Source: Pseudobdellovibrionaceae bacterium
GTDB lineage: Bacteria; Bdellovibrionota; Bdellovibrionia; Bdellovibrionales; Bdellovibrionaceae
DNA length: 23,946 nucleotides
Assembly: GCA_041288045.1 (NCBI GenBank)
Contig: JBGGMM010000217.1
Location: forward strand, 1-23,946
Reading direction: 5' to 3'
Part shown: piece after piece, positions 4,425 to 22,809 of the stretch
Numbering within the stretch: the stretch's first letter is position 1
How the letters are laid out: every line of letters begins with the position of its first letter
Made by a program: the position numbers and the translations under genes
The notes under the pieces: generated by a model
Told to the model about the DNA's origin: nothing
Database searches by the model: none
What the model saw: the letters and a program-made list of their open reading frames with translations, nothing else

Positions 4425-6276
4425 AGAAGGCCGTTGGCCTTTCGGCATTTCTCGCCATGAAAGCAAAAAGTTTTTCCCGCCAAATACTCAAAGTCGGATC
4501 ACCAGTCGGAAGAATCGTTTCACGCCCCAACACAAATGTGGTCTCTTGAATCGGAAAGGGCATTCCTCTCTCACGGCAGGCTTCTAAGATGTGTTTGATC
4601 TTTGGAATTTCCGTGAATCCGTAATTGGCAACAATTCGATAAAACTGGGGCGAGAGAGTTTCGATTTGCACTCGATCTTTTTTATTTACAAAAGGCACAT
4701 CGTTGGTTTTGATAGTTAAAATCGCAATTTGAGTGTGCATGACCTTGTTGTGCTTGAGGTTGTGCAGAAGCGGGACCGGAACACCCCAAGTATCCCCAGT
4801 CATATAAATGGCCGAACCTTCAACCCGCCGAGGCGGGGATTTGGCAATGGTCTGAATAAAATCTGACATCGGGATAGAGCGGGCTTTCAGCCGCTCGGCC
4901 AGAATTTTCCGGCCCTTTGCCCACGTGGACATCAAAAGGTAAACAACTGCTCCAATTAACAACGGAACCCAGCCGCCGTGTGTGACTTTCGCCACATTGG
5001 GCGCAAAGAAGGCAATATCAAAAATCAGAAAAAAACCAAAGATCGAAAGACCTTTCCAGCGACTCCAGTTCCATATCCTTCGCGACACTTGGTATGCGAG
5101 CAAAGTTGTAATCAACATGGTTCCGGTGACGGCAATTCCATAGGCCGAAGCCAGATCACTGGATGTCTTAAACGAAACTACCAGCCAAACTACACCGACC
5201 ATCATTGTCCAATTAATAAATGGAATGTAGATCTGACCAATCTCTCGGCTCGAGGTGTGAAGAATCGACAGACGCGGACAAAATCCCAATTGCACAGCTT
5301 GCTTGGTGAGTGAGGCCACTCCGGCAATGAGGGCTTGAGAGGCAATAACTGTGGCAATAGTTGAAAGTATAACTAAAGGCCAAAGAGCCCAACTGGGCGC
5401 CAATAAGAAAAAAGGACTACTGATGGCCTCTGGATTTTGCAAAACCAAGGCCCCTTGTCCGAAATAATTCAAAACAAGTCCAGGCAAGGCAACCGCATAC
5501 CAGGAAAGCTTGATCGCTCTTCGACCAAAGTGTCCCATATCGGCATAAAGAGCCTCTCCTCCGGTGATCACCAAAACCACTGAACCTAAAACCAAAAATC
5601 CAGAAAACCCATTATGCAGAAAGAATTCATAGGCCCAATAGGGATTAATCGCCTCTAAAACAGAAGGGTTTTCAATAATCTTGTTGACGCCTAAAATGCC
5701 AATACTGAGAAACCACAAAGCAATGATGGGACCAAAAATGACACCAATCCGACCTGTTCCCAAAAACTGGAAAAGATAAAGCAGCACAATCAGGATCAAG
5801 GTAATGGGAATCACAAAGGGTTCAAAAATCGGAGTGACAACTTTCAATCCCTCAACAGCCGAGAGAACCGAGATGGCTGGAGTGATCATTCCATCACCAA
5901 AGAGGAGCGAAGCTCCAATCAAACCTAAAATAGTGACCACCACCCGCCTTTTGGAGGAGCTGGAGTAATGAAGTCCTTGTGAAGACAGAGCCATCAGCGA
6001 AAGAATTCCACCCTCACCTTTATTGTCCGCCCGCATCACAAACATCATGTACTTTAAACTGATCATCAGAAGGAGCGCCCAGAAAATCAGCGACAGAACT
6101 CCAAGCACATTGGCGGATGTCACTTGCAGATTGTGTTCAGGGGCAAAGCATTCTCTCAATGCGTACAGAGGCGAAGTCCCGATATCTCCGAACACAACAC
6201 CCAGGGCACTGAGAGCCAAAACAGCCATGCGATCTTTTGCATGAGAGAAGTGGGCAGTAGGTTGTGAAGATTCGAT
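4372..6276 (-). CDS. kup: KUP/HAK/KT-family potassium transporter
   Basis: Signature LGVVFGDIGTSPLYA, RADNKGEGGIL, DGMITPAISVLSAVEG, GGEALYADMGHFG, AYGIAVTGTM and C-terminal VIEVGIQVEI. The start is uncertain: ATC 6276 (GGAGG 5 nt upstream), ATG 6228 (no SD) or TTG 6342 (ORF track). Confidence 0.96.
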   Translation of the reverse strand: MESSQPTAHFSHAKDRMAVLALSALGVVFGDIGTSPLYALRECFAPEHNLQVTSANVLGVLSLIFWALLLMISLKYMMFVMRADNKGEGGILSLMALSSQGLHYSSSSKRRVVVTILGLIGASLLFGDGMITPAISVLSAVEGLKVVTPIFEPFVIPITLILIVLLYLFQFLGTGRIGVIFGPIIALWFLSIGILGVNKIIENPSVLEAINPYWAYEFFLHNGFSGFLVLGSVVLVITGGEALYADMGHFGRRAIKLSWYAVALPGLVLNYFGQGALVLQNPEAISSPFFLLAPSWALWPLVILSTIATVIASQALIAGVASLTKQAVQLGFCPRLSILHTSSREIGQIYIPFINWTMMVGVVWLVVSFKTSSDLASAYGIAVTGTMLITTLLAYQVSRRIWNWSRWKGLSIFGFFLIFDIAFFAPNVAKVTHGGWVPLLIGAVVYLLMSTWAKGRKILAERLKARSIPMSDFIQTIAKSPPRRVEGSAIYMTGDTWGVPVPLLHNLKHNKVMHTQIAILTIKTNDVPFVNKKDRVQIETLSPQFYRIVANYGFTEIPKIKHILEACRERGMPFPIQETTFVLGRETILPTGDPTLSIWREKLFAFMARNAERPTAFFKIPPNQVIEVGIQVEI

Positions 6277-6442
6277 GAAGGCCTCCGATATTCCATTAAA
6301 AAGCCAGAAACTGAATTTGTCAGCTCCCTTTTTTTGGCCCAAGGTCTGAATCTATACCATCGAAAATCTCTGCATGAAAATAGACAACGACCTGCGAAGA
6401 AGTCACACTATTGAGGACAGCTCAAATGCAAATGGAAAGGTC

Positions 6443-7072
6443 ATGGCAATGAAGAGACCCATAATTGCGATTGTTGATGATGAACAGGATCTGCGCGACA
6501 ACTTTCAAAGCCTTCTCGAAGACCAATTTGAAATCAAAGCTTTTGCTTCACCGCAAGAATTTCTTCAGGCCCTGCCCGATTTGCAGCAAAAAGGCCTTCG
6601 CCTGCTTGTCAGTGATTATAAAATGCCAGTGATGACAGGGCTTGAAATGGTGCAAAAAGCCCACTCTCAATTTCCCTCCCTGCCCTTTATTATTCTCTCT
6701 GGATTCTTGGATAAAAAAACAGTTCTTGATGCTGTGAAAATGGGCGTCTTTCGTCTTTTGGAAAAACCTTATGCGCCGGAAGATTTGCTGGCGGCTATTG
6801 ATCAGCTTCTGCTTGAATCGGAACTGCAGACAGTGCGCAATGAGATCCGGCAAATCACTTCGCAGCTTCGGGAGCTTTATAGCAGCATTCGCCTGGCTCT
6901 TTTGCAGCATATTCCAGAAGAGTTGATGGACCGACTGATTGTCGATGCGCCTGATGAAAGTGAGCAAAAGAAAATGAGCTTTGAGGATTTACTGGAGCAG
7001 TTGGAAGACCGACTGGAACTGCTTTTGACCTCTGAAAAAATGATCAGCGATATCAAGACGACTCGGGAGTAA
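6443..7072 (+). CDS. Response regulator (intact receiver domain plus helical/coiled-coil C-terminus)
   Basis: IIAIVDDE acidic pocket, phospho-acceptor LLVSDYKMP, ILSG and conserved Lys in LEKP. ATG 6443 or 6449 follows GGAAAGG; the track start at 6374 is probably too long. Confidence 0.88.
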   Translation: MAMKRPIIAIVDDEQDLRDNFQSLLEDQFEIKAFASPQEFLQALPDLQQKGLRLLVSDYKMPVMTGLEMVQKAHSQFPSLPFIILSGFLDKKTVLDAVKMGVFRLLEKPYAPEDLLAAIDQLLLESELQTVRNEIRQITSQLRELYSSIRLALLQHIPEELMDRLIVDAPDESEQKKMSFEDLLEQLEDRLELLLTSEKMISDIKTTRE

Positions 7073-7075
7073 AGT

Positions 7076-8773
7076 ATCGAATCACCTAAAGAGGCTGAGG
7101 AAGCAACAGAATCTTTTTCCATTTTTATTTTGAAATCGCAAGTGACAGCGCTTGTTCAAGCCGAAAGTTTTTTGCGCAATCGAAAATGGATCGTCGGAAG
7201 CAGCACCAATCTGCGTGAAGCTTTGGCCTATATCATTCAAAAAAAGCCGCAATATGTTCTGGTGTCAGCTGATCATCCCAATCGCAAAGTGCGAATTCTT
7301 CCCAAGATGTTGGTACAAGCTTTCCCTTGCCGAGTGATTGCATTTGCTGAAAAAGGCTCTAGCCAATCCACCAAAGTTTTGCATGAAATGGCTCTTGAGT
7401 ACAATCTCTACCCACCCGTCTCGGGCCCCTCTATCGAAAGAATGATTTTGAAAATTCGCAGAGAGGATGAGCTTCGAGCTCAGCAATCCGAGATCACTGG
7501 CAAGCAGTCAAAAGCTTCCGTTGCCTCAGGCACCGAGGGCAGTCTTAATTTTCGCGGCGACACCCACACGGCGGACGCTTTAAAATCCTCCTTTGACCAA
7601 GCACGAGCGGCTCTCACTCAATTGATCAGCTCGGATACAGTTGACGAAACAGGCACCACTGCTGCCGGCAGCGGTAGCACGGACTCAAGCTCTGGATTGG
7701 GATCAGGAGTGATCATTCAGCAGGGTGTGGGATTAGGAAGTGGCGGCATCGCCCATATCTCTGGAAATGGGCTTGGACCGAAAGTTTCAATTACACAGGA
7801 GGGCATGGGCGGCGGTCATGGTCCTGGCGGATTTGGTCAAGTGACCCACTCGGATTCAGGAAATTTTCACGAAGGAAGTTCTGATTGGGATTCGACGACT
7901 TCACAAAAAAAACCCCATTCACCAAGTGGCCTTGAAAGCGACCCGCATGCCAATGAAGTCAGCGAAGAAAACGAAAGCGCTTCGACCTATTCAAAGAAAA
8001 ACCAGAGCGTTCCAATCATGGAATCCGGGGAGATCAGAAAAAACACGAAAGGCTATCGGATTGTCAGCATTCCAACGAAGAATTCTGTTCCGCTTGATTC
8101 TATCATCATTCAAGGAACTGAAGAGGCTCTTGAGCAAACAGTTCAATTTCAAGATCCAGACCAAGCGGCCAAAGTTCAAATCTCTTCTCATCTTGCCTGC
8201 ATTCATGTGAAAAGTGAAAGTTTTTCGGGCTATTTGCTCTGTGCTTTAGGGGAAAATCGCCAAGTCGATAAAACACTCATCGATGCGATTCAGAAAAAAC
8301 TTTTTCAATTTTTAAAAACCAACAATGTCTCCGTCAAAGAAGAGGACACTTTGCAGCTTCAGATCCAACAAGTGGACTTCACCGATTGGGCTCTGGAGCA
8401 AGCGCAGTTTTTGAAAAAAACCATTCACGGCAAAGATGAAATTGCCATGGCATTTTTTCCCTGCACCGAGCCCGAACTGGAACTTGACCCTTCCATCTCA
8501 AGCAAAATGATGCAAATCAGTCTTCGCGATCTCAAACCCGACGCTACTCTCGAATTTGATCTCTACATTTTCATGCCACAAAATAACAAATATTTGCTCT
8601 ACACTCCCAAAGGAAAGCCCTTCTATGGCCACCAACAAGGCCGACTGGAAAAAAAGGGAGTCACCCATATGCACTTAAGAAAAGAAGCCGCCCCCGAAGT
8701 CAGAAAATACCAAGCCCAAAATTTCCTCAACTCCCAAATCACAGACTACAAGACTACAAAGAAGCAAAAGTAA
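7076..8773 (+). CDS. Hypothetical signalling protein: degenerate receiver-like N-terminus, Gly/Ser-rich linker, C-terminal domains
   Basis: Long ORF. The N-terminus has receiver-like alternating strands and helices (SIFILKS...REALAYIIQKKPQYVLVS...VIAFAE...YNLYPPV) but no acidic pocket. The track start is TTG 7130; the frame stays open back to 7073, with ATC 7076 six nt after GGGAG. Confidence 0.8.
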   Translation: MESPKEAEEATESFSIFILKSQVTALVQAESFLRNRKWIVGSSTNLREALAYIIQKKPQYVLVSADHPNRKVRILPKMLVQAFPCRVIAFAEKGSSQSTKVLHEMALEYNLYPPVSGPSIERMILKIRREDELRAQQSEITGKQSKASVASGTEGSLNFRGDTHTADALKSSFDQARAALTQLISSDTVDETGTTAAGSGSTDSSSGLGSGVIIQQGVGLGSGGIAHISGNGLGPKVSITQEGMGGGHGPGGFGQVTHSDSGNFHEGSSDWDSTTSQKKPHSPSGLESDPHANEVSEENESASTYSKKNQSVPIMESGEIRKNTKGYRIVSIPTKNSVPLDSIIIQGTEEALEQTVQFQDPDQAAKVQISSHLACIHVKSESFSGYLLCALGENRQVDKTLIDAIQKKLFQFLKTNNVSVKEEDTLQLQIQQVDFTDWALEQAQFLKKTIHGKDEIAMAFFPCTEPELELDPSISSKMMQISLRDLKPDATLEFDLYIFMPQNNKYLLYTPKGKPFYGHQQGRLEKKGVTHMHLRKEAAPEVRKYQAQNFLNSQITDYKTTKKQK

Positions 8774-8975
8774 GAAAAAATGCCGCGGCGTTTTCTGAAC
8801 GCTCCTGTGAGCGACAAAAAACCATGATCAGCTCAGCTGCATTTTTATTTTTGGTTTTCTGGAAACTCGCCGCAGGCGAGCCCCGAAGGGGTGAGGCCTG
8901 GAGCCGCGGAGGCGAAGCTGGACGATGACAGTCGGCGGAGGGCCGAATTTCCAGAAAATGCGGCCATGGATGGTC
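8773..8975. repeat. GC-rich multi-hairpin intergenic element (REP/MITE-like or structured RNA)
   Basis: Inverted repeat TTTTCTGGAAACTCG (8855-8869) / CGAATTTCCAGAAAA (8944-8958), 14 of 15 complementary. Hairpins CTCGCC-GCA-GGCGAG (8866-8880), CCCC-GAA-GGGG (8881-8891) and CGCTC-CTGT-GAGCG (8800-8813). Confidence 0.6.
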
Positions 8976-9026
8976 AAGATCAAGCAAAGCCGCAAACCTC
9001 ATTGACCACCCAAAACCCAGCCCAAC

Positions 9027-9614
9027 TCAAGCCTTCGGCGGACGCCGAGAGTTCACAGTATTCGCATCCAGCTCCTCAGCGCGAAGTGCTTTAGCAAACC
9101 TCTGAAACCCTTTCACTTGATCTTTCAACAGCTGCAGAGCCACTGAATCCAGCAACTCACCGTCTTTTAAAGTCTTAAACACATTCATCAGAAAAATTCG
9201 AATTGGGAATTGATAGGCATTCCGATAAGCCATGACTTGTTGCAAATGTTCAATCGGTCGAAGGCCGCCAAAAAGACCGCCGAGACCGACGAAACACACA
9301 GGTCGATATTCGAAGCTTTCGGGATATTTCCAGTGATCAATAAAGTACTTCAGAGCTCCTGGCATCGAGCCATTGTATTCGGGCACAACAAAGATCAAAC
9401 CATCGGAAGTGGTCACTTTTTGTACTGCCTGCTCCCATGAGAGATGCAGACCGGGACCTCCATACTGACGACCGGTGAGCTCTTCAAAAGGAAGCTCCGT
9501 CAAATCCAGAATTTCAACTTGCTCACCGGCTTCGGCATAAAGTTTTTGAATCAAATTGGAAACCTGTCGGGTCCGAGAGTTGGGTCTGTTGGTGCCTGAG
9601 ATTATGTACTTCAC
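9027..9614 (-). CDS. NAD(P)H-dependent FMN reductase (flavodoxin-like fold)
   Basis: IISGTNRPNSRT phosphate loop, FVVPEYNGSMPGALKYFID and GGLFGGLRPIEHL. GTG 9614 has GGAGG 5 nt upstream and is preferred over ATG 9635. Confidence 0.92.
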   Translation of the reverse strand: MKYIISGTNRPNSRTRQVSNLIQKLYAEAGEQVEILDLTELPFEELTGRQYGGPGLHLSWEQAVQKVTTSDGLIFVVPEYNGSMPGALKYFIDHWKYPESFEYRPVCFVGLGGLFGGLRPIEHLQQVMAYRNAYQFPIRIFLMNVFKTLKDGELLDSVALQLLKDQVKGFQRFAKALRAEELDANTVNSRRPPKA

Positions 9615-9648
9615 TTTTGCCTCCGGATGGCTCATGCTAACGAAAGAG

Positions 9649-10347
9649 ATGACTGATTTAAAGTGGTTTCTTTTCAGCGAAGGTCAAGTGACAGGTCCTT
9701 TTTCCAAAGAGGAAATTGATGTGCGTTTGACACTCGGCTCAAGCCCTTTGATCTGGGGCCGGGGTCAGGCCGAGTGGGTGCCTGCCGATCGCTGGAACCA
9801 AGTGCTGCGCGAGTCTGATTCTCAGTCTCAAAGGTCACGCTCTGGGTCAGACCGCCTGTGGAAAGTTCGAGTGGCCGGTCATGAGCAAAAGCCGATGACC
9901 CACGATCAAATGATCGATTACCTGAAAGATCAAACCGATTATGGTGAGATTCAGATTTGGACTGAAGGCTATTCGGATTGGAAAGACATTTATCAAATCC
10001 ATAAAATCATGGACGAGCTGGGAGTTTCCAGACGTCAGCACCCTCGAGTTCCAATCATGGGAAGCCTCACTTGCGAAGGTGCCACTGGCAATATCACAGC
10101 TCGGGTGCTTTCCATCAGCGAGGGCGGGCTTGGAATCACCGATGCTCCACAAGTGAAAATCGGTGAGAAATTCAAAACGATTCTCAAAAGCCCGAACCTC
10201 TACACGCCGATCCACTCCACTGCCGAAGTGGTCTATGTCGGGTCCGATAGCTATGCCGGAATGAAATTCATCAGCCTGCACCCAGAATCAAAAAGCGCCA
10301 TCATCGAGTACGTGAAAAAATTCACGGAGCTTTCAAAAGGGGTCTAA
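9649..10347 (+). CDS. Tandem GYF_2 (DUF4339)-like domains plus C-terminal PilZ domain protein
   Basis: WFLFSEGQVTGPFSKEEI...LIWGRGQAEW and WKVRVAG...KPMT...IWTEGYSDW resemble GYF_2. PilZ motifs RRQHPR (RxxxR), SISEGG, AEVVY and GMKF. Start is ATG 9649 or 9634. Confidence 0.85.
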   Translation: MTDLKWFLFSEGQVTGPFSKEEIDVRLTLGSSPLIWGRGQAEWVPADRWNQVLRESDSQSQRSRSGSDRLWKVRVAGHEQKPMTHDQMIDYLKDQTDYGEIQIWTEGYSDWKDIYQIHKIMDELGVSRRQHPRVPIMGSLTCEGATGNITARVLSISEGGLGITDAPQVKIGEKFKTILKSPNLYTPIHSTAEVVYVGSDSYAGMKFISLHPESKSAIIEYVKKFTELSKGV

Positions 10348-11074
10348 CCCCTAAAGTGCTATTTCTTTTGCTTTGAAATCCCTCGCGAATCACCACTTCG
10401 AAGTCATTGGCTTTCAAGGCTCGCTTCAAGGCTCCTGTGCAAGCATAAGTGCTGACGAAAGAAGCCGGAGCACAAACTTGAGAAAAAAAGCGAGTGAGAA
10501 AGCTCTCATCCCAAAGATGTGGTGAGGTTTTGGAACTGAAGGCATCATAAAAAATGACTTCATACTGAGATTCAACGGAAAATTCGGGAAGCAAGGCCCC
10601 CTCGACTTTCCAACTGCCGTTTTTGTAAGAATCAAAAAGCCACTTTTTCACTTCAGGCTTCAAAGGGGAATCAAAGAACAAAAAAATTTCGTCATAGATC
10701 AAATCGGTATCAGAAGTTTCAGTCCAGAAAAGAAAATGCTCGCGTAAAAAAGAATCGGATTCAAAACTCAAAAGCTGAAAGTCTGAAGGCCCAATTCCCC
10801 TCTTCAAAGCTTCAAGCGCCACAAGAATTTCATTGTAGCCAAGGCCTAGCCCCACGGAAACAGCGCTTCGACCACCGAGTTCCAAAGACTCTCGGAGAGG
10901 ATTTCCGTAAATGAGCTGAGTCTCTGAATAGGCTCCGCCTCGGTGATGCATAGTCTCTTGGGTCTCTGATCCCAACCAGCGCAATGTGGGGCTTTGATCC
11001 TCGGTGAGAACCTTTTCGTAGTTGTGTTTTTTCCAAAAATCCGTGGTTTCTGCCATATGCCTGTGCATCTCCAT
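10322..11074 (-). CDS. mnmD: Stand-alone MnmC(m)/MnmD-like SAM-dependent tRNA mnm5s2U34 methyltransferase
   Basis: ETMHHRGGAYSETQLIY, SAM-binding SVGLGLGYN, LSFE, FYDAFSSKTSPHLW, STYAC...LKRAL...F and GFQSKR match the MnmC methyltransferase half. No FAD oxidoreductase domain. The start may be 11056. Confidence 0.8.
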   Translation of the reverse strand: MEMHRHMAETTDFWKKHNYEKVLTEDQSPTLRWLGSETQETMHHRGGAYSETQLIYGNPLRESLELGGRSAVSVGLGLGYNEILVALEALKRGIGPSDFQLLSFESDSFLREHFLFWTETSDTDLIYDEIFLFFDSPLKPEVKKWLFDSYKNGSWKVEGALLPEFSVESQYEVIFYDAFSSKTSPHLWDESFLTRFFSQVCAPASFVSTYACTGALKRALKANDFEVVIREGFQSKRNSTLGVRPLLKAP

Positions 11075-11119
11075 AGCGCAAAAGTTGACCTCTGGCTACG
11101 AAGCTGTAACAACCGAGCC

Positions 11120-12127: not shown

Positions 12128-13917
12128 TTGCGAAATTCCATCCCAACAAACCAAAAAGCTCCTTCGTCGAAATAGTTTTTGGATTGCTGATATCTTTGGT
12201 CGAATACATTATTGCCGCGGATGTAGCCCGAGACGTGTTCGATGAAATCGTGATTGTAAAAGAGATTGGTCGTCATATAACCGGGCAATCGGTCATAGGT
12301 TCTGCTATCAAAACGAACACCGTTGCCAATCAGCTCAAACCCAGCTGAATCCCTTTCCCATTCTTTTAAAAGTCGAGCTCCACCACTGACCAAAGAGCGC
12401 TTCAAAAGCCATTCACCAGTTGTTATGTTTCGTGGTTCTTGATAGCCAAAGCTGAGATCCAGCTTCAGGTTATCCTCTGTGCGATAGGCATAAACGGCCT
12501 CCGCTCCTCGACTTCGAGCTTCTTGTACGTTCTCATATCGTCCGGTCGCAGGAGCTCCGACGAATACTATTAAGTTTGAAAATGAAGTTTCAAAAACCGA
12601 AATTGAAAAATTTTGTCGCTCACTGACGGTATGACTATAAGTCAGGGTCAGGGTTCGCGACGTTTCAGCCTTCAGATCCTTATTTGATCCGTAATTTTCA
12701 GAATAAAGCTGAAACAAAGAAGGAACCTTAAAGCCAGTCGCATACTCAAATCGCCAGTCCTTAAAGACAGTCATACCCAATTGGTAAGAATCGACGCGAT
12801 CGCGACCGTAGACAAAATCCGAGCGAAGCCCGCCTTCGGCAGAAAGACTCTCAGCCAATTCGCGATCGTATTTGGCAAACACTCCAGAACTGTATTGAAA
12901 TTGATTTGAAATCTCCTGACCATTCTCCAATTCAGAGAAATTTTCTTTGGTGTGACTGGCGCCAAACCGCAACTGATCCTGCTCTCGGTCTACCGGGAAT
13001 GTTTCCAGCCGAACATTTAAAAGCTCGCTCTGATAACGACTGTTCACGTCTCCCCAAGGTTGCGTTTGTTCAAATTTTCGCACTCCTTGCTGATAGGAAG
13101 CCAACAAAGAAGGCTTCAGTGGAACCTGGGGCGCTAAGACTCCACCCGTCAGATTCCAAAACTGATTTCTCGCCTCGAAGTGCTTCGTGTCTAAAACGAC
13201 ATCGCCATATCCCGTCGCCTGTTCCGAATAGTCATCAAACCCATTCAGTTTCAGAAAGAAATCAAAATCGCTTTTTCGAAGATATCCAACATCCCCATTC
13301 AGCAGCTTGGAATGGTATGTAAAGTCGGACTCTTTTAAGGGCGAATGATTGTTTTTCTCTGTCATAGAGGCTCGCGCTAAAACACCCTGACTCTCATCCA
13401 AAGCCTTCATGCCAAAAACTGCAGCTTTGCGATACTCTCTTTGACCGGCTTCAGCTTGCCCGGCAGCCTGATCGGCAACTTGGGTTGGAAAGGTTTCGAT
13501 TTTAATAACGCCAGTGAGGGCCTGCCCACCGTACAGGACCGATTGACTGCCCTTAATCACTTCAATGCGTCGGACTGTAGTGATGTCGATATTGCTGAGA
13601 TTCAAAGTCCTTTGCGTCGTCGTCGGATCATAAGCTGGTAGTCCATCCACTAAAATCAGCACATGACTGGAATCCCCACCGCGAATGAAAATCGAGCTCG
13701 GCTGAAAATTCGAATTCACAATCGAAATATTCGCCTGACTCGCAAGCAGCGCTGGGATATTCGGGGCTTTGCTTTCGCGAATTGTTTTTTCGTCGATCAC
13801 GACTTTGCTGGCAGTGCTAAAGGAATCCGTACGGATGACCGTTCGGTACTCGTCACTTCCCTCTTGAGCAAAAGCCCATGAAGAGAACACCAGAGCACCG
13901 ATGAAAAAAAATCTCAC
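12124..13917 (-). CDS. TonB-dependent outer-membrane receptor, BtuB-like (substrate unproven)
   Basis: Signal peptide (AFA-Q), plug motifs IFIRGGDSSHVLILVDG and RRIEVIKGSQSVLYGGQALTGVI, barrel motifs YATGFKVPSLFQLY, DLKAETS and NVFDQRY. About 600 aa. GTG start with GGAGG 6 nt upstream, coupled to the tonB stop. Confidence 0.88.
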   Translation of the reverse strand: MRFFFIGALVFSSWAFAQEGSDEYRTVIRTDSFSTASKVVIDEKTIRESKAPNIPALLASQANISIVNSNFQPSSIFIRGGDSSHVLILVDGLPAYDPTTTQRTLNLSNIDITTVRRIEVIKGSQSVLYGGQALTGVIKIETFPTQVADQAAGQAEAGQREYRKAAVFGMKALDESQGVLARASMTEKNNHSPLKESDFTYHSKLLNGDVGYLRKSDFDFFLKLNGFDDYSEQATGYGDVVLDTKHFEARNQFWNLTGGVLAPQVPLKPSLLASYQQGVRKFEQTQPWGDVNSRYQSELLNVRLETFPVDREQDQLRFGASHTKENFSELENGQEISNQFQYSSGVFAKYDRELAESLSAEGGLRSDFVYGRDRVDSYQLGMTVFKDWRFEYATGFKVPSLFQLYSENYGSNKDLKAETSRTLTLTYSHTVSERQNFSISVFETSFSNLIVFVGAPATGRYENVQEARSRGAEAVYAYRTEDNLKLDLSFGYQEPRNITTGEWLLKRSLVSGGARLLKEWERDSAGFELIGNGVRFDSRTYDRLPGYMTTNLFYNHDFIEHVSGYIRGNNVFDQRYQQSKNYFDEGAFWFVGMEFRN

Positions 13918-15157: not shown

Positions 15158-17656
15158 ATGCTTCAAACAGAGTCCATCGGACAGGGCTTTATCAACGAAA
15201 ACGACGACACTCAACCACATGTCATGCGAGTGCGAAAGCGCGATGGCTCACTAGAGGCCGTGGACGTCACAAAGATCGTCGAGCGCGTGACAGGTTGCTG
15301 TTACGGCATCGCTCACGTCGACCCGCTCCGAGTGGCGACAAAGGCCATCAGCGGCCTTTATGATGGAGCCACCACCAAAGAGCTCGACAATCTGTGTATC
15401 CAAACAGCTTCTCTTTTGATTGGCGAAGATCCTGAATATTCGCGTCTCGCGGCGCGACTGTTGGCGATTTACATTGATGAAGAGGTTCGATCACAAAAAA
15501 TCCAATCTTTTGCCGACAGCGTAACTTTCGGTTACAACTCTGGCCTTATCGGCGAAAGCACTTACAAGTTCGTCGAGAAAAACCGAGCCGCTCTCAGCGC
15601 TGCCATTGAGCCTTTCCGCACGGATCGTTTCGAATACTTCGGTCTTCGCACCATCTATGATCGCTATTTGCTGAAAAATCCAAAAACCCGTCAAGTTTTG
15701 GAAACTCCTCAGTATTTTTTCATGCGAGTGGCCTGCGGCCTTGCTCAATCAGTGGAAGAAGCGGTCGAGTTTTACCGCCTGATCTCTTCACATGATTATT
15801 TGGCCTCCACTCCCACACTTTTTAATTCAGGAACTTTACGTCCGCAGATGTCTTCTTGCTATCTGTGCGATTCGCCTGAAGATGACTTGCGATCCATTTA
15901 CGAAAAATACATGGACATCGCGCTTCTGTCGAAATTTGCTGGCGGCATTGGTGTCGCTTACCACCGCGTTCGCGCTCGTGGCTCTTTGATCAAAGGCACC
16001 AACGGACATTCCAACGGAGTGATCCCTTGGCTGAAAACCATGGACAGCTCGGTTGCTGCCGTCAATCAAGGCGGAAAGCGCAAAGGCGCGGCTTGCATTT
16101 ACCTTGAAACTTGGCACGCCGACATTGAAGAATTCCTAGAGCTTCGTGAAAACACGGGCGATGAGGCCAAACGCACTCACAACCTGAATTTGGCCAATTG
16201 GGTGCCTGATCTTTTTATGAAACGAGTGGAAAAAGATGAGGTGTGGTCTCTTTTTGACCCAAGACAGGTTCCTCACTTGGTCGATCTCTACGGCGATGAA
16301 TTTGAAAAAGCCTACTTGCAAGCCGAAGAGCAAAAGCTTTTCATGAAGCAAATCAATGCTCGCGAGCTCTACAGCCGCATGATGAAAACCTTGGCTCAAA
16401 CTGGAAATGGCTGGATGACTTTTAAGGATGCTTCCAATCTGAAATCCAATCAGACAGGGCTTCCACAGAATGTCATTCACCTCTCCAATCTCTGCACTGA
16501 GATTTTAGAAGTGACTTCCAACAATGAAACGGCTGTTTGCAACCTCGGTTCCGTGAATCTAGGTAGACACATCGTCAATGGCCAGTTTGATTTTGAGAAA
16601 TTGGCAAAGACAGTTCGCACTGCCGTCAAATATTTGGACCGAGTGATTGATATCAATTTCTACCCGATTCCAACAGCCCAAACCTCGAACAATCGCTGGA
16701 GACCTGTGGGCTTAGGTCTCATGGGACTTCAAGACGCTTTCTTTCAGCTGAAGCTTCCTTTTGATTCACCTGAAGCCAGGGAACTTTCAAGAAAGATTCA
16801 AGAAGAGATCTATTACAATGCGCTCGTGATCTCTAATGAGCTTTCTGAAAAGCAGGGCCCTCACCCTTCTTTCAGTGAAACCAAAGCAGCTCAGGGGATT
16901 TTGCAATTTGATTTATGGGGAACTCAACCCTCAGACTCCAAGCGCTGGAATGCGCTTCGCGAGAAAATCAAAAAGCATGGCCTGAGAAATTCACTGATGA
17001 TCGCGATTGCACCAACAGCGACAATTGCCTCTATCGTCGGCTGCTATGAAGCCACAGAGCCGCAGGTGTCGAATCTGTTTAAGCGCGAGACTTTGTCAGG
17101 GGAATTCATGCAGGTGAACAAGTACCTGGTGACTGAACTGAAGGCCTTGGGACTTTGGAATGATGAAGTTCGCAATGAAATTAAATTGGCTGAAGGCTCG
17201 ATTCAAAATATCGACGTCATCCCAACTTCACTGAAAGAAATTTTCCGCACAGTGTGGGAAGTTCCTATGAAGTCTTTGGTGGACATGGCAGCCGATCGCG
17301 GTGCTTACATCGATCAAAGTCAAAGCTTGAATCTTTTCATGGAATCTCCAACAATTGGAAAGCTGTCAAGCATGTACATGTATGCCTGGAAACGCGGGAT
17401 TAAGACCACTTACTATCTGCGCTCTCGTCCAGCCACATCCATTGCCAAGACAACAGTGAAGAAATCCACACAGGGAACGGGAGTGCAATCACCGAGTCCA
17501 AGCGTGGCCGTAGGAGAAGAATTCGCCGGTGCCGAAACAGCAGCAACTGCAGTGACTGCTGCAGCCGCTGAGGCAGAAGCGAAAAAAACCTACACAGATT
17601 CAGAAGTGATTGCTTGTTCTTTGGAAAATCCTGAAGCCTGCGAGGCCTGCCAATGA
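15158..17656 (+). CDS. nrdA: Class Ia ribonucleoside-diphosphate reductase alpha subunit with ATP-cone
   Basis: ATP-cone VRKRDG...KIVERV, STPTLFNSG, QMSSCYL, NQGGKRKGA, SNLCTEI (thiyl Cys), AVCNLGS, IAPTATIA, KTTYYLR and C-terminal CEAC. SD GAGGGG. Confidence 0.97.
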   Translation: MLQTESIGQGFINENDDTQPHVMRVRKRDGSLEAVDVTKIVERVTGCCYGIAHVDPLRVATKAISGLYDGATTKELDNLCIQTASLLIGEDPEYSRLAARLLAIYIDEEVRSQKIQSFADSVTFGYNSGLIGESTYKFVEKNRAALSAAIEPFRTDRFEYFGLRTIYDRYLLKNPKTRQVLETPQYFFMRVACGLAQSVEEAVEFYRLISSHDYLASTPTLFNSGTLRPQMSSCYLCDSPEDDLRSIYEKYMDIALLSKFAGGIGVAYHRVRARGSLIKGTNGHSNGVIPWLKTMDSSVAAVNQGGKRKGAACIYLETWHADIEEFLELRENTGDEAKRTHNLNLANWVPDLFMKRVEKDEVWSLFDPRQVPHLVDLYGDEFEKAYLQAEEQKLFMKQINARELYSRMMKTLAQTGNGWMTFKDASNLKSNQTGLPQNVIHLSNLCTEILEVTSNNETAVCNLGSVNLGRHIVNGQFDFEKLAKTVRTAVKYLDRVIDINFYPIPTAQTSNNRWRPVGLGLMGLQDAFFQLKLPFDSPEARELSRKIQEEIYYNALVISNELSEKQGPHPSFSETKAAQGILQFDLWGTQPSDSKRWNALREKIKKHGLRNSLMIAIAPTATIASIVGCYEATEPQVSNLFKRETLSGEFMQVNKYLVTELKALGLWNDEVRNEIKLAEGSIQNIDVIPTSLKEIFRTVWEVPMKSLVDMAADRGAYIDQSQSLNLFMESPTIGKLSSMYMYAWKRGIKTTYYLRSRPATSIAKTTVKKSTQGTGVQSPSPSVAVGEEFAGAETAATAVTAAAAEAEAKKTYTDSEVIACSLENPEACEACQ

Positions 17657-18651
17657 TTCTTGATCCTGGATTCAACCTGACTTTGCGACCAATGAAGTAC
17701 CCGATTTTTTACGAAATGTACAAAAACGGGATCAAGAACACCTGGACCGTGGATGAAGTCGACTTTTCCACGGATCTGGTAGATCTCCATCAAAAAATGA
17801 CTCCGGCAGAAAAGCATTTGATTGGCCGTCTGGTGGCTTTTTTTGCCACTGGCGATTCGATTGTCGGCAACAACTTGGTGCTCAATCTTTACAAGCATAT
17901 CAACTCTCCAGAAGCGCGGCTTTATCTTTCTCGCCAGCTTTATGAAGAGGCTTTGCATGTGCAATTTTATCTGACACTTTTGGACACTTACATTCCAAGT
18001 CCAGATGAAAGAGCCAAGGCTTTCGCCGCCATCGACAACATCCCTTCCATTCAGAAAAAAGCACAGTTTTGCTTTAAATGGATTGATTCCATCAATCAGC
18101 TAGACACTTTGGAAAGCAAAGAAGACCGCAGAAAATTTCTGATGAATCTGATCTGCTTTGCAAGCTGCATTGAAGGTCTGTTTTTCTTTGCCGCTTTTGC
18201 CTATGTGTATTTCTTAAGATCTAAAGGACTTCTGGCCGGACTTGCGTCGGGAACCAATTGGGTTTTCCGAGATGAGAGCATGCACATTGCTTTTGCCAAC
18301 GAAGTGATCAGCACTGTTCGAAAAGAAGAACCTGATCTTTTCAATGAGCAAATGAATGAAATGATCATTCAAATGCTAGAAGATGCCATTGACTGTGAAA
18401 TGGCTTTTGCGAAAGACATTTTGGATCATGGAGTGGCAGGGCTCTCATTGAAAGACATGCGTCAGTATTTGGAATTTGTCGCCGATCAAAGACTGGAAGC
18501 TTTGCACATCCCGCCTCGCTACAATGTGAAAAATCCATTTTCATTTATGGAACTTCAGGACATGCAGGAATTGGCGAACTTTTTTGAACGCCGGGTTTCT
18601 GCTTATCAGGTTGGCGTCACGGGAGCTGTTGCCTTCGACGAAGCTTTCTAA
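17653..18651 (+). CDS. nrdB: Class Ia ribonucleotide reductase beta subunit
   Basis: Di-metal ligands FFATGD, EEALH, IEGLFF and RDESMH; radical Tyr in EALHVQFY; NFFERRVSAY. ATGA overlap with nrdA. Confidence 0.96.
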   Translation: MILDPGFNLTLRPMKYPIFYEMYKNGIKNTWTVDEVDFSTDLVDLHQKMTPAEKHLIGRLVAFFATGDSIVGNNLVLNLYKHINSPEARLYLSRQLYEEALHVQFYLTLLDTYIPSPDERAKAFAAIDNIPSIQKKAQFCFKWIDSINQLDTLESKEDRRKFLMNLICFASCIEGLFFFAAFAYVYFLRSKGLLAGLASGTNWVFRDESMHIAFANEVISTVRKEEPDLFNEQMNEMIIQMLEDAIDCEMAFAKDILDHGVAGLSLKDMRQYLEFVADQRLEALHIPPRYNVKNPFSFMELQDMQELANFFERRVSAYQVGVTGAVAFDEAF

Positions 18652-18683
18652 AAAAATTCCAGCTCAAAAGGAGTCAGGTCGCT

Positions 18684-19358
18684 TTGAGAAAAATGTGGAT
18701 TCTCCTCATTCTCACACTGGCTCTTTGCTTTGGCATTGGCTTTGGAATTGGAGCCTATCCACAATTTTTGCGCTCTTTACGTGGGGAAAAGCCGGATTAT
18801 TTGGTGCTTCTGACTTCAGATACCAAGCTCATTCCGCTGAAACTCCTTTTAGCCTATGAAAAAGCCACAGGCCACACCGTGCAGCTCAAAGAGATCAGCA
18901 CTTATCACTTGTTTCGAACAGAGGCAGCCTCGGCCGATCTGCTCTTTGCTCCCCTGCCCTGGCTCAATCAATTTCAGACAATCCTTGAGCCGCTTCCGCA
19001 TTTAAACGAGCTTCAAAGTCTTTTATCCACTGATTTTATTTCTTTAAAATTGGAGCTGAATTTTTTTCTTCCAGTTCTTTGGAAAACCGCGATCATCGAT
19101 GAAAGATCGCATCTTCTTATTTGGGGTTTTGCCACTTCCAATGAAGATCAAAAAGAAGTTTTGGATTTTCTCAACTTTATTCTCACCAGCCCCAATCAGC
19201 TCAGGGACTGGTCGGCAGCACTCCCAGAAATGTCATTCACTTTGGATCTCACCAATCAAATTGAAAGCATTCCTGAATCTCAGAGAGCCGATCAGTTTCG
19301 CAACGTCTCTCTCCCTGGATTGATCATTGATCAGCGAGTGAAAGAGGATTCACAGTAA
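18684..19358 (+). CDS. Membrane-anchored hypothetical protein, weakly similar to extracellular solute-binding (PotD-like) proteins
   Basis: N-terminal hydrophobic helix. AYEKATGHTV, ADLLFAP and EVLDFLNFILTS recall SBP motifs, but the protein is short (224 aa). TTG start with AAGGAG 10 nt upstream, or ATG 18693. Confidence 0.7.
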   Translation: MRKMWILLILTLALCFGIGFGIGAYPQFLRSLRGEKPDYLVLLTSDTKLIPLKLLLAYEKATGHTVQLKEISTYHLFRTEAASADLLFAPLPWLNQFQTILEPLPHLNELQSLLSTDFISLKLELNFFLPVLWKTAIIDERSHLLIWGFATSNEDQKEVLDFLNFILTSPNQLRDWSAALPEMSFTLDLTNQIESIPESQRADQFRNVSLPGLIIDQRVKEDSQ

Positions 19359-19362
19359 AATT

Positions 19363-19926
19363 TCAAGGGCAAGCGTTCACGGACCAGGCGATCTGGAAGA
19401 ACCGATCAAAGGCAGCTTTGGGATCTCTGGTTTCTTTGCCAGATGAATCCACTGTGACCAATTGGCCGAGAAGCCGGTAAGTGCTTTGGGATTGACCCCG
19501 GTAAGCCGAGCAGGCCAAGGGAAGATGAATCGAATATCTTCCATGTTCACATTTAAATTGCTTCGCAATGTAACAAGATTCAGCCCAAGGGCCTTTTTCT
19601 GGGCAAGTGTTATCCTGAGGTGCCATTTTCACTGGAATTCTTTGATTGGCTTGATCCTGAAGACGAATCTCAATGTAATGTGGTGTCGTCAGACCCACAT
19701 TGCATTCACCCCCCACAGAGAGGGTCATATCGGTTTCAAGCAAATCCAAAATCCCGATGGGAGAATCCAATTTCACTTGCGAGGGAGAAGACGAAGAAGA
19801 GTCTGTTAATGCCGAATTGAATTCAAATGGACTTGGATCCGAATAAGTGGAGCAGTTCTGGTATTGCAGAACACAAAGAATCGACAGAGCTGCGATTGTG
19901 ATCCAGGTTTTCATAGGTATCTTCAT
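19363..19926 (-). CDS. Secreted or lipid-anchored Cys-rich hypothetical protein (YQNC signal motif)
   Basis: Basic N-region, hydrophobic H-region, then QYQNC (Cys codon 19854-19852), with six further Cys downstream. Start is ATG 19926 or 19914, since GTG 19959 falls inside the predicted promoter. Confidence 0.8.
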   Translation of the reverse strand: MKIPMKTWITIAALSILCVLQYQNCSTYSDPSPFEFNSALTDSSSSSPSQVKLDSPIGILDLLETDMTLSVGGECNVGLTTPHYIEIRLQDQANQRIPVKMAPQDNTCPEKGPWAESCYIAKQFKCEHGRYSIHLPLACSAYRGQSQSTYRLLGQLVTVDSSGKETRDPKAAFDRFFQIAWSVNACP

Positions 19927-19936
19927 CACATCTCTC

Positions 19937-19963
19937 TTATCGGAAAAAAAGCGTCTCACTTAA
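19937..19963 (-). promoter_or_regulatory. Sigma28 (FliA)-type promoter
   Basis: The minus strand reads TTAAG (19963-19959), N14, TCCGATAA (19944-19937), compared with the consensus TAAAG-N14-GCCGATAA. Confidence 0.7.
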
Positions 19964-19980
19964 GGACAAAGATCGGGTTT

Positions 19981-20907
19981 TTAGCTTTGTCTCATTTTGA
20001 GACGAAGCCAACAATGTCTGCATTTTTCCATGAATTTTAAAAGGCTCTCCTCCGAGAGAAAGAGAATGTAAGGCGAGACCATCAGAAGCGCAAAACTCCA
20101 GAGCGCCATAAAAATTCCGATTCCGGCATGAAAAAGGACACCGGCCATCAGCAGATACTTCCGCAAAGACTGCACCCAAACCAGAACCGGAAAATACAAT
20201 TCAAAAAGAAGCGTTGAAAAACTAAGAAAGACAATCAACAGAGGAAAATGACGGGTCCACGTGAAATCCCCAATCACCATTTGAGAATTGGCAAGCACAC
20301 TCCAAATCGCGGTGCCATCCCACCAAGTGCTCCCTTTGAGCTTTTCCATTCCCGAATAGACATAAACCAAACACAGTTGAATCTGAATCATTCGATAAAA
20401 GACAGAAGTCAGCAAATCTCCTGAAAGCTCTGATTTTTGCCGTTTCTTTCTCCACCAGTGGCGGAATGACAGGCGCGCATCTGACTGTGTGAATGCCAAA
20501 TAAAAAAGAAAAAGACTTCCGATTTGATCCGCACCAAATGCCACTCCGTAATTTCGATACAAAAAAGCCAATTGAAAAAAAGTCGCAATAAAACCCAGCC
20601 ATCGACTGAACACACCAAAAGCCATGAGAAATAAAATAAGAACAAAAACCGCATGAATAGCAAACACCCAGGAATCCGGCCAAAAACTATAAACTGCAAA
20701 TGGCCTATAGCTCTCTGGCAGCACCTTGAGCGCAAGATCTTTGGGCAAAATCCCTGCATCAGTGTAAAAGAGCTCGACATCCATCTGCCGCCCCAAATAC
20801 ATCGAGGCCATCGTGAAGCAGAAAAGAATCCGAAAGGCAGCCAAATTGAAAAGCGGAACAGGATCAAACCAGAACTGATTCCATTTTTGCCAAAGTGACC
20901 GAATCAT
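19981..20907 (-). CDS. HTTM-domain membrane protein (SdpB / vitamin K-dependent carboxylase-like)
   Basis: WNQFWFDP...LAAFRI, RNYGVAFGADQI, IQIQLCLVYVYSGMEKLKGSTWWDGTA, TLLFEL and GVLFHAGI. Multiple TM helices; ATGA-coupled to the upstream gene. Confidence 0.88.
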   Translation of the reverse strand: MIRSLWQKWNQFWFDPVPLFNLAAFRILFCFTMASMYLGRQMDVELFYTDAGILPKDLALKVLPESYRPFAVYSFWPDSWVFAIHAVFVLILFLMAFGVFSRWLGFIATFFQLAFLYRNYGVAFGADQIGSLFLFYLAFTQSDARLSFRHWWRKKRQKSELSGDLLTSVFYRMIQIQLCLVYVYSGMEKLKGSTWWDGTAIWSVLANSQMVIGDFTWTRHFPLLIVFLSFSTLLFELYFPVLVWVQSLRKYLLMAGVLFHAGIGIFMALWSFALLMVSPYILFLSEESLLKFMEKCRHCWLRLKMRQS

Positions 20908-21449
20908 AGCGCCATCTCATCAGGCTCTTCGCCACAGACATGGGTGTACTCCATCATTTTGGCTTCACGTCTTTCTCCCATTTCAGTCAAATGGGAAATA
21001 TCCAAATTTGGAATGGGCTCTAGAATATTTTCGATGTGGATGGAGGCAGCGCCCGAATGAATCCGACAAAGATAGGGACCTAAAAGAATTTTCATTCGTC
21101 TTTCATCTAAAATCAAAAATCGCATGGCATAAAGAAATCTTCGTTGGGAAGTATCAACGACGATTTTTTCTTTTTCTGGCGGAATGTAGCCTTCGACTGG
21201 GTCTGCGTTTTCTTCATCAAAATGCGCATAATAATGAATGTACATCGTATGGGCTGGGTCTGGGGCAAAAAAATTCCAGTTCACAGTGAGCCCAATGGCA
21301 TTTCCATAGGGGGATATCCAAGGCCAAAAAGTTCTCGCTAAATAGGAGCTTCCGTTGGCCAGAGTCGCCATTGAGAAAACATGAAAAAGAATAAAAAAAC
21401 TAAGCAGAATGCGAAGCCAGAACGAGGGGGGTTTTGACAGCTTAGAGAT
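20904..21449 (-). CDS. SdpA / DUF5819-like membrane-anchored protein
   Basis: PYGNAIGLTVNWNFFAPDP motif and a CR motif. The frame stays open upstream of ATG 21371 and encodes a TM helix, WLRILLSFFILFHVFS. There is no ATG/GTG/TTG back to the TGA at 21491-21489. ATC 21449 lies 6 nt after GGAG; CTG 21440 is an alternative. Confidence 0.75.
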   Translation of the reverse strand: MSKLSKPPSFWLRILLSFFILFHVFSMATLANGSSYLARTFWPWISPYGNAIGLTVNWNFFAPDPAHTMYIHYYAHFDEENADPVEGYIPPEKEKIVVDTSQRRFLYAMRFLILDERRMKILLGPYLCRIHSGAASIHIENILEPIPNLDISHLTEMGERREAKMMEYTHVCGEEPDEMAL

Positions 21450-22809
21450 TGGCCTCTCCGGAGCTGTGTTCTTCTTCCGTTTCCACCATCACTTGCTTTT
21501 CTTCCTGAAGGGCTTCTTTGGCCTCTTCAGCTTGGACAGAGGCTGTCTCACCAGCCATCAAAGCTTCATCGTACTTGCTCAACCAATTGCGATCACGAGT
21601 CGACACTTCTTCACCCAGAGCCAGTGCTTCACGCAGGTTCTGAGCTTTTTCAGCATCGCGCTTTTGTTGCTGCCTGAGCTTTTCTTGCACAAAGAAATCA
21701 GAGCTGGTGTTAATTGCACCCAATTGATCTGAAATCTTGGTCAGCTCTTCTTCACCTTCTGAATAACTAGTGCCAATTGTTTGCGACATTGAATCTGTCA
21801 CCTGACTGAGCGTGGGCTTAGCCTCTTCCTCGGTCATTCCCTCTGGCAAAAGCTCATCAATTTGAGAAAGAGTGGGCAGTTCCTTGAGATTGCGAAGTCC
21901 GAAAATTTCTAAAAACTTTTTCGTCGTCGCATAGAGCATGGGTTTTCCGGGAAGATCGCTCTTTCCTTCAAAATTCACCAGGCCTTTTTCCATCAGAGCT
22001 CGGAGCAAATGCCCGCTTTCAACTCCACGGATTTCATCGATCTCGTGCTTAATCAGTGGCTGCTTGTAAGCCACAATTGCTAGCACTTCAAGCGCCGGTC
22101 CAGAAAGTTTGAACTGACGAGCTTTCAAAGTCCGAGTCAGAAATTGAAGATTATCGACCTTGGTGCGAATTTGATAGCCACCAGGAACCTCTTCTAAAGA
22201 AACTCCTCGACGAGCCCCCGCCAACTCCACAGCCAATCGGTCCAGAGCTTTGCGAATGCGATCACCTTTGATATTCGTCCCTTTAAAAACCAATTTCAAA
22301 GAGGCTAAGCTAACGGGGCGATCAGAAGCAAAAAGCACACTCTCAAGAATCGAATCCAATCTCTCTTCTTCGACAAATTCGATGTCTTCAATTTCAGCGG
22401 ACTCAAAAGCATCCAGCTCTGTGCCTTCGACGGATTCAACATCAGGCAAAGCTTCGGCATCAACGGCTTCTTCGTCAGTGGCTTCGGGCAAAAAGGACAC
22501 TGGCTCTTCTTCCGTGAAAATTCCTGTGCTGGCGAATTCAGAAAGCTCATTTTCCGCTTCATCGGAAGTTTCAGCATCAAATGCCATTTCAGATTCATCA
22601 GATTCAATGAATGACAAGTCTTCTTCGGGGTCAGCTTCAGAAGCGACGGCAACATCTGGAGGAGCAGGAGTTGGGGATTGCACTTCTTTTTCCTGCTCAA
22701 TCAAAGCCTTGAAAGCAGCAAATGCGGAAAGAGAATTTTCTTTCACAGAGGCGATCTCGTCACCGCCATTGCCAGTTGTATTTTCATCAGTCTTTTTTCT
22801 TTTTGCCAT
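21442..22809 (-). CDS. scpB: SMC-Scp complex subunit ScpB with long acidic N- and C-terminal extensions
   Basis: LESVLFASDRPVS, GGYQIRT, LSGPALEVLAIVAYKQP, IDEIRGV and PGKPMLYATTKKFLEIFGLRNLKELP. SD GAGGGG. Confidence 0.95.
   Translation of the reverse strand: MAKRKKTDENTTGNGGDEIASVKENSLSAFAAFKALIEQEKEVQSPTPAPPDVAVASEADPEEDLSFIESDESEMAFDAETSDEAENELSEFASTGIFTEEEPVSFLPEATDEEAVDAEALPDVESVEGTELDAFESAEIEDIEFVEEERLDSILESVLFASDRPVSLASLKLVFKGTNIKGDRIRKALDRLAVELAGARRGVSLEEVPGGYQIRTKVDNLQFLTRTLKARQFKLSGPALEVLAIVAYKQPLIKHEIDEIRGVESGHLLRALMEKGLVNFEGKSDLPGKPMLYATTKKFLEIFGLRNLKELPTLSQIDELLPEGMTEEEAKPTLSQVTDSMSQTIGTSYSEGEEELTKISDQLGAINTSSDFFVQEKLRQQQKRDAEKAQNLREALALGEEVSTRDRNWLSKYDEALMAGETASVQAEEAKEALQEEKQVMVETEEEHSSGEANL

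Follow-up and report, generated by a model that had tools for sequence, protein, structure and literature searches.

We analyzed a stretch of 23,946 nucleotides (hereafter the window) from a soil bacterium of the Pseudobdellovibrionaceae. The window is a complete contig (C217) from an assembly of 2.89 Mb (genome G000) that is made up of 249 contigs and is 83% complete. Two genes in the window are likely to start translation at AUC: kup, which encodes a potassium transporter, and prr, which encodes a protein that we call a pseudo-receiver. A third gene, which we call SdpA-like and which encodes a small membrane protein, probably does so too. These would be weak near-cognate starts of the kind found in infC and pcnB. 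For kup and prr, comparative genomics together with fold prediction places the start almost certainly at the ATC codon.

An original prediction, made from the sequence of the window, had pointed to an in-frame ATC codon behind a Shine-Dalgarno (SD) sequence in each of these three genes, and all three are present exactly as described. The SD lies at a working distance in every case: GGAGG at 5 nt in kup, GGGAG at 6 nt in prr, and GGAG at 6 nt in the SdpA-like gene, with distances of 5-8 nt in relatives of kup and prr. The likeness that had been drawn to canonical GTG starts in the window was confirmed by GGAGG at 5 nt before the GTG at 9614 and GGAGG at 6 nt before the GTG at 13917. The first downstream canonical start is 16 codons (kup), 18 codons (prr) or 26 codons (SdpA-like) from the ATC. 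The structural elements that had been proposed to lie upstream of the canonical starts are real, and consist of strand β1 of a receiver fold in prr and a conserved membrane helix in the SdpA-like protein. Gene callers were said to miss such starts; public calls do miss all three, with kup called as 618 aa from the ATG at 6228 and the Atlas record of prr beginning only at residue 23, a GTG. In each of the three genes the conserved coding region has a near-cognate codon of the AUH type (AUA, AUC or AUU) at its 5' edge. The conserved N-terminus cannot be obtained from a canonical start in 2/97 kup loci, in prr of G001 and G002, or in the SdpA-like gene of the window.

The ATC codons could in principle be sequencing or assembly errors for ATG, a reading that would fit the fragmented, low-depth metagenome assembly from which the window comes. 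Logan contigs assembled independently for each of two soil-metagenome runs of one study agreed with ATC, with zero differing letters at all three sites and a contig word depth of 3-5x. None of the runs listed for this stretch was an RNA run. The contigs covering 7024-7819 (X1 record 1), 6911-7159 (X2 record 9) and 20860-21700 (X1 record 8) each had 0 other letters, and those around the kup site differed solely at 6067, 6072 and 6076. The same ATC also recurs in many relatives whose genomes were assembled independently, some of them as a single contig. We therefore consider such errors to be vanishingly improbable.

Translation starts of kup and prr

The features relevant to kup are as follows.

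4372..6276, minus strand: kup, a KUP/HAK/KT potassium transporter gene read from ATC, 634 aa, with its start placed by orthologue comparison
6274..6276, minus strand: proposed ATC start codon of kup; the SD with ATC-GAA is conserved in genus g1 (G007, G006, G002)
6282..6286, minus strand: kup SD, GGAGG, separated from the ATC by the 5-nt spacer CCTTC; in the most conserved 5' block of four genus genomes
6226..6228, minus strand: rival kup start, an ATG 16 codons downstream, used in the public call P0001 (618 aa, beginning MAVLALSALG)
6340..6342, minus strand: upstream in-frame TTG, rejected as the kup start

The kup product matched the Pfam families K_trans (PF02705, E 4.9e-188, profile positions 1-453 of 454) and K_trans_C (PF22776, E 2.9e-52). 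In three genomes of the same genus (G007, G006 and G002), GGAGGCC(C/T)TCATCGAATCTTCA is the best-conserved kup 5' block, and an in-frame stop codon is located 5-7 codons before the ATC. More distant relatives show the same arrangement. In G018, from another genus, and G022, from another family, ATC-GAA follows GAGG or GGAG at 7 nt with a stop 3 or 1 codons upstream, and the first canonical codon lies within the first membrane helix. The TTG at 6342 was rejected as a start; it has no SD, and its frame stays open solely through a 2-nt gap in the alignment with G007, G006 and G002, all three of which have a stop there. This TTG appears in frame because the gap in the window shifts the upstream stop out of frame.

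To describe the family we used kup loci from 97 distinct Bdellovibrionaceae genomes (30 + 60 + 7), picking the best-scoring loci and excluding lower-scoring second copies and the weakest matches. With a strict SD rule, requiring a core of the GGAG/GAGG/AGGA class 4-9 nt 5' of the codon, the start was ATC in 28 loci, ATT in 3, ATA in 2, CTG in 2 and canonical in 62, giving an SD-led ATC, ATT or ATA start in 33/97. A relaxed list of SDs, which probably over-calls ATA, gave 38 ATC, 9 ATA, 2 ATT, 47 canonical and 1 without a call. Genus g10, which has many single-contig genomes, accounted for 24 ATC, 4 ATA and 4 GTG among its 32 relaxed calls. No canonical start was found at least 5 residues before the GDIGTSPLY motif in 2/97 loci (L076 and L222), at least 9 residues before it in 4/97, or at least 12 residues before it in 21/97.

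At the aligned -25 position, 27 kup loci have a start-type codon followed by GAA or GAC (22 ATC, 3 ATA, 1 GTG and 1 ATG), with GGGAG, GGAG, GGGG or a similar SD 6-8 nt upstream. The ATG belongs to L245 and the GTG to L219. The ATG of G008 kup is 26 residues from the LG of transmembrane helix 1 (TM1), the same as the ATC in the window. Start codons behave in this way, with ATC, ATG and GTG replacing one another at a single aligned position. The original prediction had asked whether ATC sits where relatives have ATG; this holds for kup and does not hold for the SdpA-like gene, in which the ATGs of relatives lie elsewhere and the ATC column is unconserved. Among 80 kup loci read from other phyla the starts were canonical, except in members of the Bdellovibrionota and in a few CTG cases.

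Pairwise differences between kup loci, sorted by position in the frame, were flat over the 45 nt upstream of the ATC (3258/3172/3191) and periodic after it, with an excess at the third position (1851/1534/2333), and they were strongly periodic in the first helix (1113/312/3907). These figures are a description rather than a test, given that related genomes do not form independent pairs. Neither an Rfam scan nor a tRNA scan of the window gave a match, and there is therefore no known leader RNA upstream of kup.

The kup records of public databases bear on the same codon. NCBI calls in Bdellovibrio isolates (P0060, P0064, P0071, P0089 and P0099) use an internal ATG that is 11 residues before the GD of GDIGTSPLY and yields a product of 623 aa beginning MLSL(A/G)ALG. 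These records are probably 14 residues too short. Two NCBI records from metagenome-assembled genomes, P0069 (MENSVYKK...) and P0042 (MKHSSIIS...), correspond to locus L073 read from its ATC and locus L071 read from its ATT, respectively. The annotation pipeline therefore already calls ATC and ATT starts where nothing else is available.

The features relevant to prr are as follows.

6374..7072, plus strand: response-regulator receiver gene upstream of prr (Pfam Response_reg, E 6.7e-20), with its stop 6 nt before the prr ATC
7065..7069, plus strand: prr SD, GGGAG, with the 6-nt spacer TAAAGT to the ATC; relatives have GGGAG, AGGAG or GGAG at 7-8 nt
7076..8773, plus strand: prr read from ATC, 565 aa, with a predicted N-terminal receiver-like fold and a C-terminal part without a family match
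7076..7078, plus strand: proposed ATC start codon of prr; SD and ATC in 5/8 genus genomes, ATT in 1
7130..7144, plus strand: rival prr starts TTG 7130 and GTG 7142, within or after strand β1 (L19, V23)

The prr starts as read in the eight genus genomes, with the SD and its distance where there is one, are:

G000: GGGAG, 6 nt, ATC
G002: GGGAG, 7 nt, ATC
G004: AGGAG, 7 nt, ATC
G001: GGAG, 7 nt, ATC
G003: AGGAG, 8 nt, ATC
G006: AGGAG, 7 nt, ATT
G007: TTG
G005: ATG

In G001 and G002 there is no canonical codon between the upstream stop and β1. The canonical starts of G007, G005 and other genera fall within an unalignable tail of variable length.

An AlphaFold2 (AF2) model of prr residues 1-150 made with 16 orthologues had a predicted local distance difference test (pLDDT) score of 91.2 and five strand-helix units, with β1 formed by residues 15-19. 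The best Foldseek matches of the model were receiver domains, among them those of DesR, VicR and KdpE (E about 5e-6, target-normalised template modeling (TM) scores 0.66-0.79), and the model has a (βα)5 receiver fold. Residues I18 and K20 are invariant in 16 sequences, and starting at the TTG (L19) or GTG (V23) would remove β1. The Leu codon that forms the rival TTG varies synonymously among relatives, in which it is TTA, CTC or CTG.

The prr product had no match in Pfam or NCBIfam, and no match to Response_reg even at E values up to 5. Canonical receivers have two acidic residues after β1. The prr protein has K20-S21 at this place, not an acidic pair, and an invariant D66 after β3 is present. 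We use the name pseudo-receiver because the predicted receiver fold is combined with K20-S21 after β1 and the lack of a Response_reg match. The prr family is multi-copy: G000 has six matches, and relatives have as many as eleven. It is apparently confined to the Bdellovibrionota, and has a conserved C-terminal region of ~230 aa without a Pfam or NCBIfam match.

The six genus genomes with ATC or ATT in prr have the stop of the upstream receiver gene 6-46 nt before the prr start, and coupling of prr initiation to terminating ribosomes is possible because of this short distance. In the window, the TAA of the receiver gene (7070-7072) falls inside the spacer between the SD and the ATC. A read-through fusion of the receiver gene and prr was rejected. 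The TAA is in frame with prr in the window, but five other genus genomes have the receiver gene and prr in frames that differ, and the in-frame TAA of the window is therefore a coincidence.

Taken together, kup and prr are not unrelated genes, as the original prediction had assumed, but neighbors in conserved synteny. The rate that it gave, 3 of about 20 genes, reflects a local cluster, and arises because the window holds one conserved kup-receiver-prr neighborhood and one uncertain case. In several genera, kup and prr are arranged head to head on the same contigs with starts 0.2-1.3 kb apart (G002, G005, G006, G007, G069, G045, G014, G070 and G032), and in genus g1 the receiver gene sits between them. 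This arrangement suggests a functional link of the pseudo-receiver protein with K+ uptake.

The genes could instead start at the codons chosen by gene callers (kup at ATG 6228, prr at TTG 7130 or GTG 7142, and the SdpA-like gene at ATG 21371), in which case the SD and ATC would be part of an untranslated leader. Public calls use these downstream codons, the Pfam K_trans profile starts just 3 residues past ATG 6228, and three further genus genomes have ATG or TTG at the equivalent of kup 6228. Against this, the equivalent residue is Leu in G018, G022 and G078 (CTA, CTT and CTT, respectively), and L076 and L222 have no canonical kup start at all. The downstream kup ATGs lack an SD of their own and would be ~50 nt from the one present, while codon periodicity in kup begins at the ATC. 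In prr the canonical starts delete β1 along with the invariant I18 and K20, and in the SdpA-like protein a start at ATG 21371 removes the conserved helix. We regard initiation at these downstream codons as unlikely and favor AUC as the start of kup and prr.

The SdpA-like gene

The third ATC is located in a region where two genes on the minus strand overlap.

20904..21449, minus strand: small membrane protein gene, SdpA-like, read from ATC, 181 aa, named by gene order alone
21447..21449, minus strand: candidate ATC start of the SdpA-like gene, the sole SD-led near-cognate codon between an in-frame TGA and a conserved helix
21456..21459, minus strand: GGAG of the SdpA-like gene, with the spacer AGGCCA, 6 nt before the ATC and inside the 3' end of scpB
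21442..22809, minus strand: scpB (Pfam SMC_ScpB, E 2.7e-48), whose stop (21444-21442) falls in the candidate start region of the SdpA-like gene
19981..20907, minus strand: downstream gene for an SdpB-family (HTTM-like) membrane protein (NCBIfam TIGR04033, E 2.2e-21, 76.7 bits, below the cut-off of 178.4 bits)

The SdpA-like product had no Pfam or NCBIfam match, and so none that would place it in the SdpA family. An N-terminal helix of the type RILLSxFxxFHL, which includes an FH motif, is kept in 17/17 relatives, and the window encodes it ahead of ATG 21371. There is no ATG, GTG or TTG in the window from the in-frame TGA to this helix. We lean toward the ATC as the start of this gene, based on the position of these sequence elements.

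There is nonetheless an appreciable chance, short of even, that in this gene alone the ATC is not the start, and that another near-cognate codon is used (CTG 21440 or ATT at about 21410) or that the gene has lost its start and is decaying. The ATC is not conserved; the corresponding column holds ACC, AGC or GCC in G002, G006 and G003, and it can be explained by the overlapping C-terminus of scpB. G007 does have ATC at this place, but an ATG follows five codons later. Relatives start at ATGs 1-10 residues before the helix or at upstream ATGs inside scpB, and a metagenome scan for closer relatives of the SdpA-like gene found none. In favor of the ATC, no other codon has an SD at working distance, and the open reading frame (ORF) is intact over 181 codons, with a likewise intact SdpB-family gene after it.

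The SD-ATC motif across the genome and the translation apparatus

The original prediction had also raised the idea of widespread AUC initiation through relaxed fidelity, caused by an altered initiation factor 3 (IF3), ribosomal P site or initiator tRNA. The presence of three ATC sites within one 24-kb window favors this idea, as do a few further candidates in the assembly, with ATA on contigs C50 and C226 and ATC on C235 and C182. The expected enrichment of ATC after SD motifs was absent genome-wide. After GGAGG, ATG occurred ~100 times per spacer position at 4-6 nt against a background of ~40, and ATC occurred 29-57 times against ~52. Among 2358 long ORFs, in the open stretch that comes before the first canonical start, an SD preceded 34/427 ATC codons compared with 1364/22859 of all codons. 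When the extension had to be at least 8 codons long with no competing canonical codon, these figures were 6/215 for ATC versus 226/12099 for all codons. For GGAG at 5-7 nt, ATC made up 5/68 sites versus 0/60 at a control distance, and two of the five were sites under test. Most of the other flagged SD-ATC sites were internal codons (in a GxGxxG motif or a PdxJ-like N-terminus, for example) or had an in-frame ATG a few codons upstream. Applied to the short extensions, a coding score based on codon usage did not discriminate, with values of 0.03 (kup), 0.13 (prr) and -0.20 (SdpA-like). The kup and prr sites stand above chance because they are conserved in orthologues.

The translation apparatus also argues against relaxed fidelity. 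The infC gene of G000, on contig C181 (L059, about 1410-1425), reads AGGAGG-TTTCCC-ATT and has no canonical codon before the conserved N-domain of IF3. This AUU start is sensible only if IF3 discriminates, and it argues that IF3 does so as usual. One tRNA has the features of a canonical initiator: C1:A72, an anticodon stem with three G-C pairs (GGG/CCC), and the anticodon CAU. There was no special initiator tRNA with the anticodon GAU among the 28 tRNAs found, a weak negative in an assembly that is 83% complete. A pattern search for the 3' end of 16S rRNA, which is unassembled, returned one-mismatch matches only (3 forward and 0 reverse, versus 1 and 2 for the control). AUH starts thus concern at most a handful of genes, well under 1%, and not the genome as a whole, and we consider widespread AUC initiation to be highly improbable.

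Three of the further candidates were read individually. At 2638-2640 on the minus strand of C50 (L200), AGGAG-TTTCCC-ATA, which has the same spacer as infC, is followed by a signal-peptide-like sequence; the ORF is at least 879 codons long, with 84 codons after the ATA that include no canonical start. This ATA is likely to be a start codon, judging from its context. At 937-939 on the minus strand of C226 (L201), GGAGG-ACTTCA-ATA is followed by KTIYFAAASLDGFIA, which we take to resemble the very N-terminus of a RibD_C-type reductase, and here the ATA is a possible start codon. Homologues of the C50 and C226 candidates were not found in the five genus genomes searched. At 8558-8560 on the minus strand of C235 (L202), GGAG at 8 nt precedes ATC-GAA one codon past a stop. 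In three relatives the start is an ATG located two codons further upstream, with ATC where G000 has the next ATG, and this case is ambiguous between a shifted start and a further ATC start.

Several points weigh against AUC initiation at the genes of the window, in addition to those given above for the SdpA-like ATC. The SD-ATC motif by itself is no more frequent than chance and has little predictive value. In many kup orthologues an ATG or TTG is retained in frame, 11-13 residues ahead of the GD motif, and it may be a second or alternative start. The N-terminal tail of kup is weakly constrained, with 2536 non-synonymous versus 511 synonymous pairwise codon differences. The related genomes are non-independent observations, and the 3-5x support for the bases comes from a single study that may include the source sample. 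Lastly, the starts are predictions from comparative and fold evidence.

Elsewhere in the window, the intergenic positions 8840-8965 hold a dispersed repeat whose ends are inverted (TTTCTGGAAA ... TTTCCAGAAA). It has 44 matches in the genome, with a full form of ~120 nt and shorter part-copies. Word depth in the run contigs jumps to 30x at this repeat, where loose ends are numerous and one variant skips 38 nt. It looks like a miniature inverted-repeat transposable element (MITE) or a repetitive extragenic palindromic (REP)-type element.

Proposed mechanism, known systems and biological meaning

We propose that the strong SD 5-6 nt upstream would position the AUC codon in the P site. The ordinary initiator tRNA (CAU) would read it there with a mismatch at the third position, presumably decoding it as formyl-methionine. 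IF3 would select against such weak near-cognate starts and keep their output low, and synthesis would be tied to IF3 activity, by analogy with an AUU-started infC. In prr and the SdpA-like gene an upstream stop codon lies within a few nucleotides of the start, and terminating ribosomes may help initiation there. By this analogy, kup and prr probably have attenuated, IF3-sensitive starts.

In E. coli, infC and pcnB have AUU starts that are policed by IF3 and have low output. The genes described here are like them in having a near-cognate AUH codon behind an SD, and the infC of G000 itself has AGGAGG at 6 nt before ATT. They differ in the use of AUC in place of AUU, in encoding a K+ transporter and a signaling protein rather than factors of translation or RNA metabolism, and in having no evident autoregulatory logic. 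The dsg gene of Myxococcus xanthus, a former deltaproteobacterium, is said to encode IF3 from an AUC start, although our literature search found no paper stating so; unlike in that case, infC here starts with ATT and not ATC. A literature search likewise found no paper linking Bdellovibrio or kup to ATC or other non-canonical starts.

The efficiency of such codons has been measured in other bacteria. In E. coli, AUA, AUC, AUU and CUG starts give 1-2% of the output of AUG, and green fluorescent protein (GFP) started at AUC has an N-terminal Met (10.1101/063800). Raised IF3 inhibits non-canonical starts (PMC2268962). In Staphylococcus aureus, a Ribo-Ret study describes four mapped non-canonical starts, cvfC1 (AUU), ccpN (AUA), citZ (AUA) and infC (AUA), all with an extended SD and ~10% of the efficiency of AUG, and the efficiency of ccpN varies with the growth medium (PMC13009471). 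The two situations are alike in that each genome has a few conserved non-canonical starts, every one behind a strong or extended SD, and those of S. aureus are read as translational attenuators (PMC13009471). They are unlike in that the S. aureus starts were mapped experimentally while ours come from sequence, that no AUC case is reported among them (PMC13009471), and that the AUH start of kup is kept across a whole family.

The standout feature of this system is the depth of conservation of an AUH start on one transporter gene. Few near-cognate starts are known in bacteria, most of them AUU or AUA, and the kup start extends this list with an AUC codon that is deeply conserved. Orthologue comparison alone separated the real starts from chance SD-ATC sites. 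The N-termini of the three proteins would be corrected by these starts, as would those of Kup in many Bdellovibrio genomes, whose records begin inside the region of the first membrane helix. The kup gene of Bdellovibrio bacteriovorus offers a culturable system for learning how much protein an AUC start yields under the influence of a strong SD and of IF3.

We also put forward a broader idea, which is speculative and at present rather unlikely: that K+ uptake in the Bdellovibrionaceae is under conserved start-codon control, with a third to half of the family having AUC, AUA or AUU in kup, and that there is a small IF3-responsive regulon that includes the pseudo-receiver operon in this genus. 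If this were true, a kup-prr regulon responsive to IF3 would be hidden by standard annotation, and Kup synthesis would track IF3 and the translational state of the cell, for example at the switch from attack phase to growth phase.

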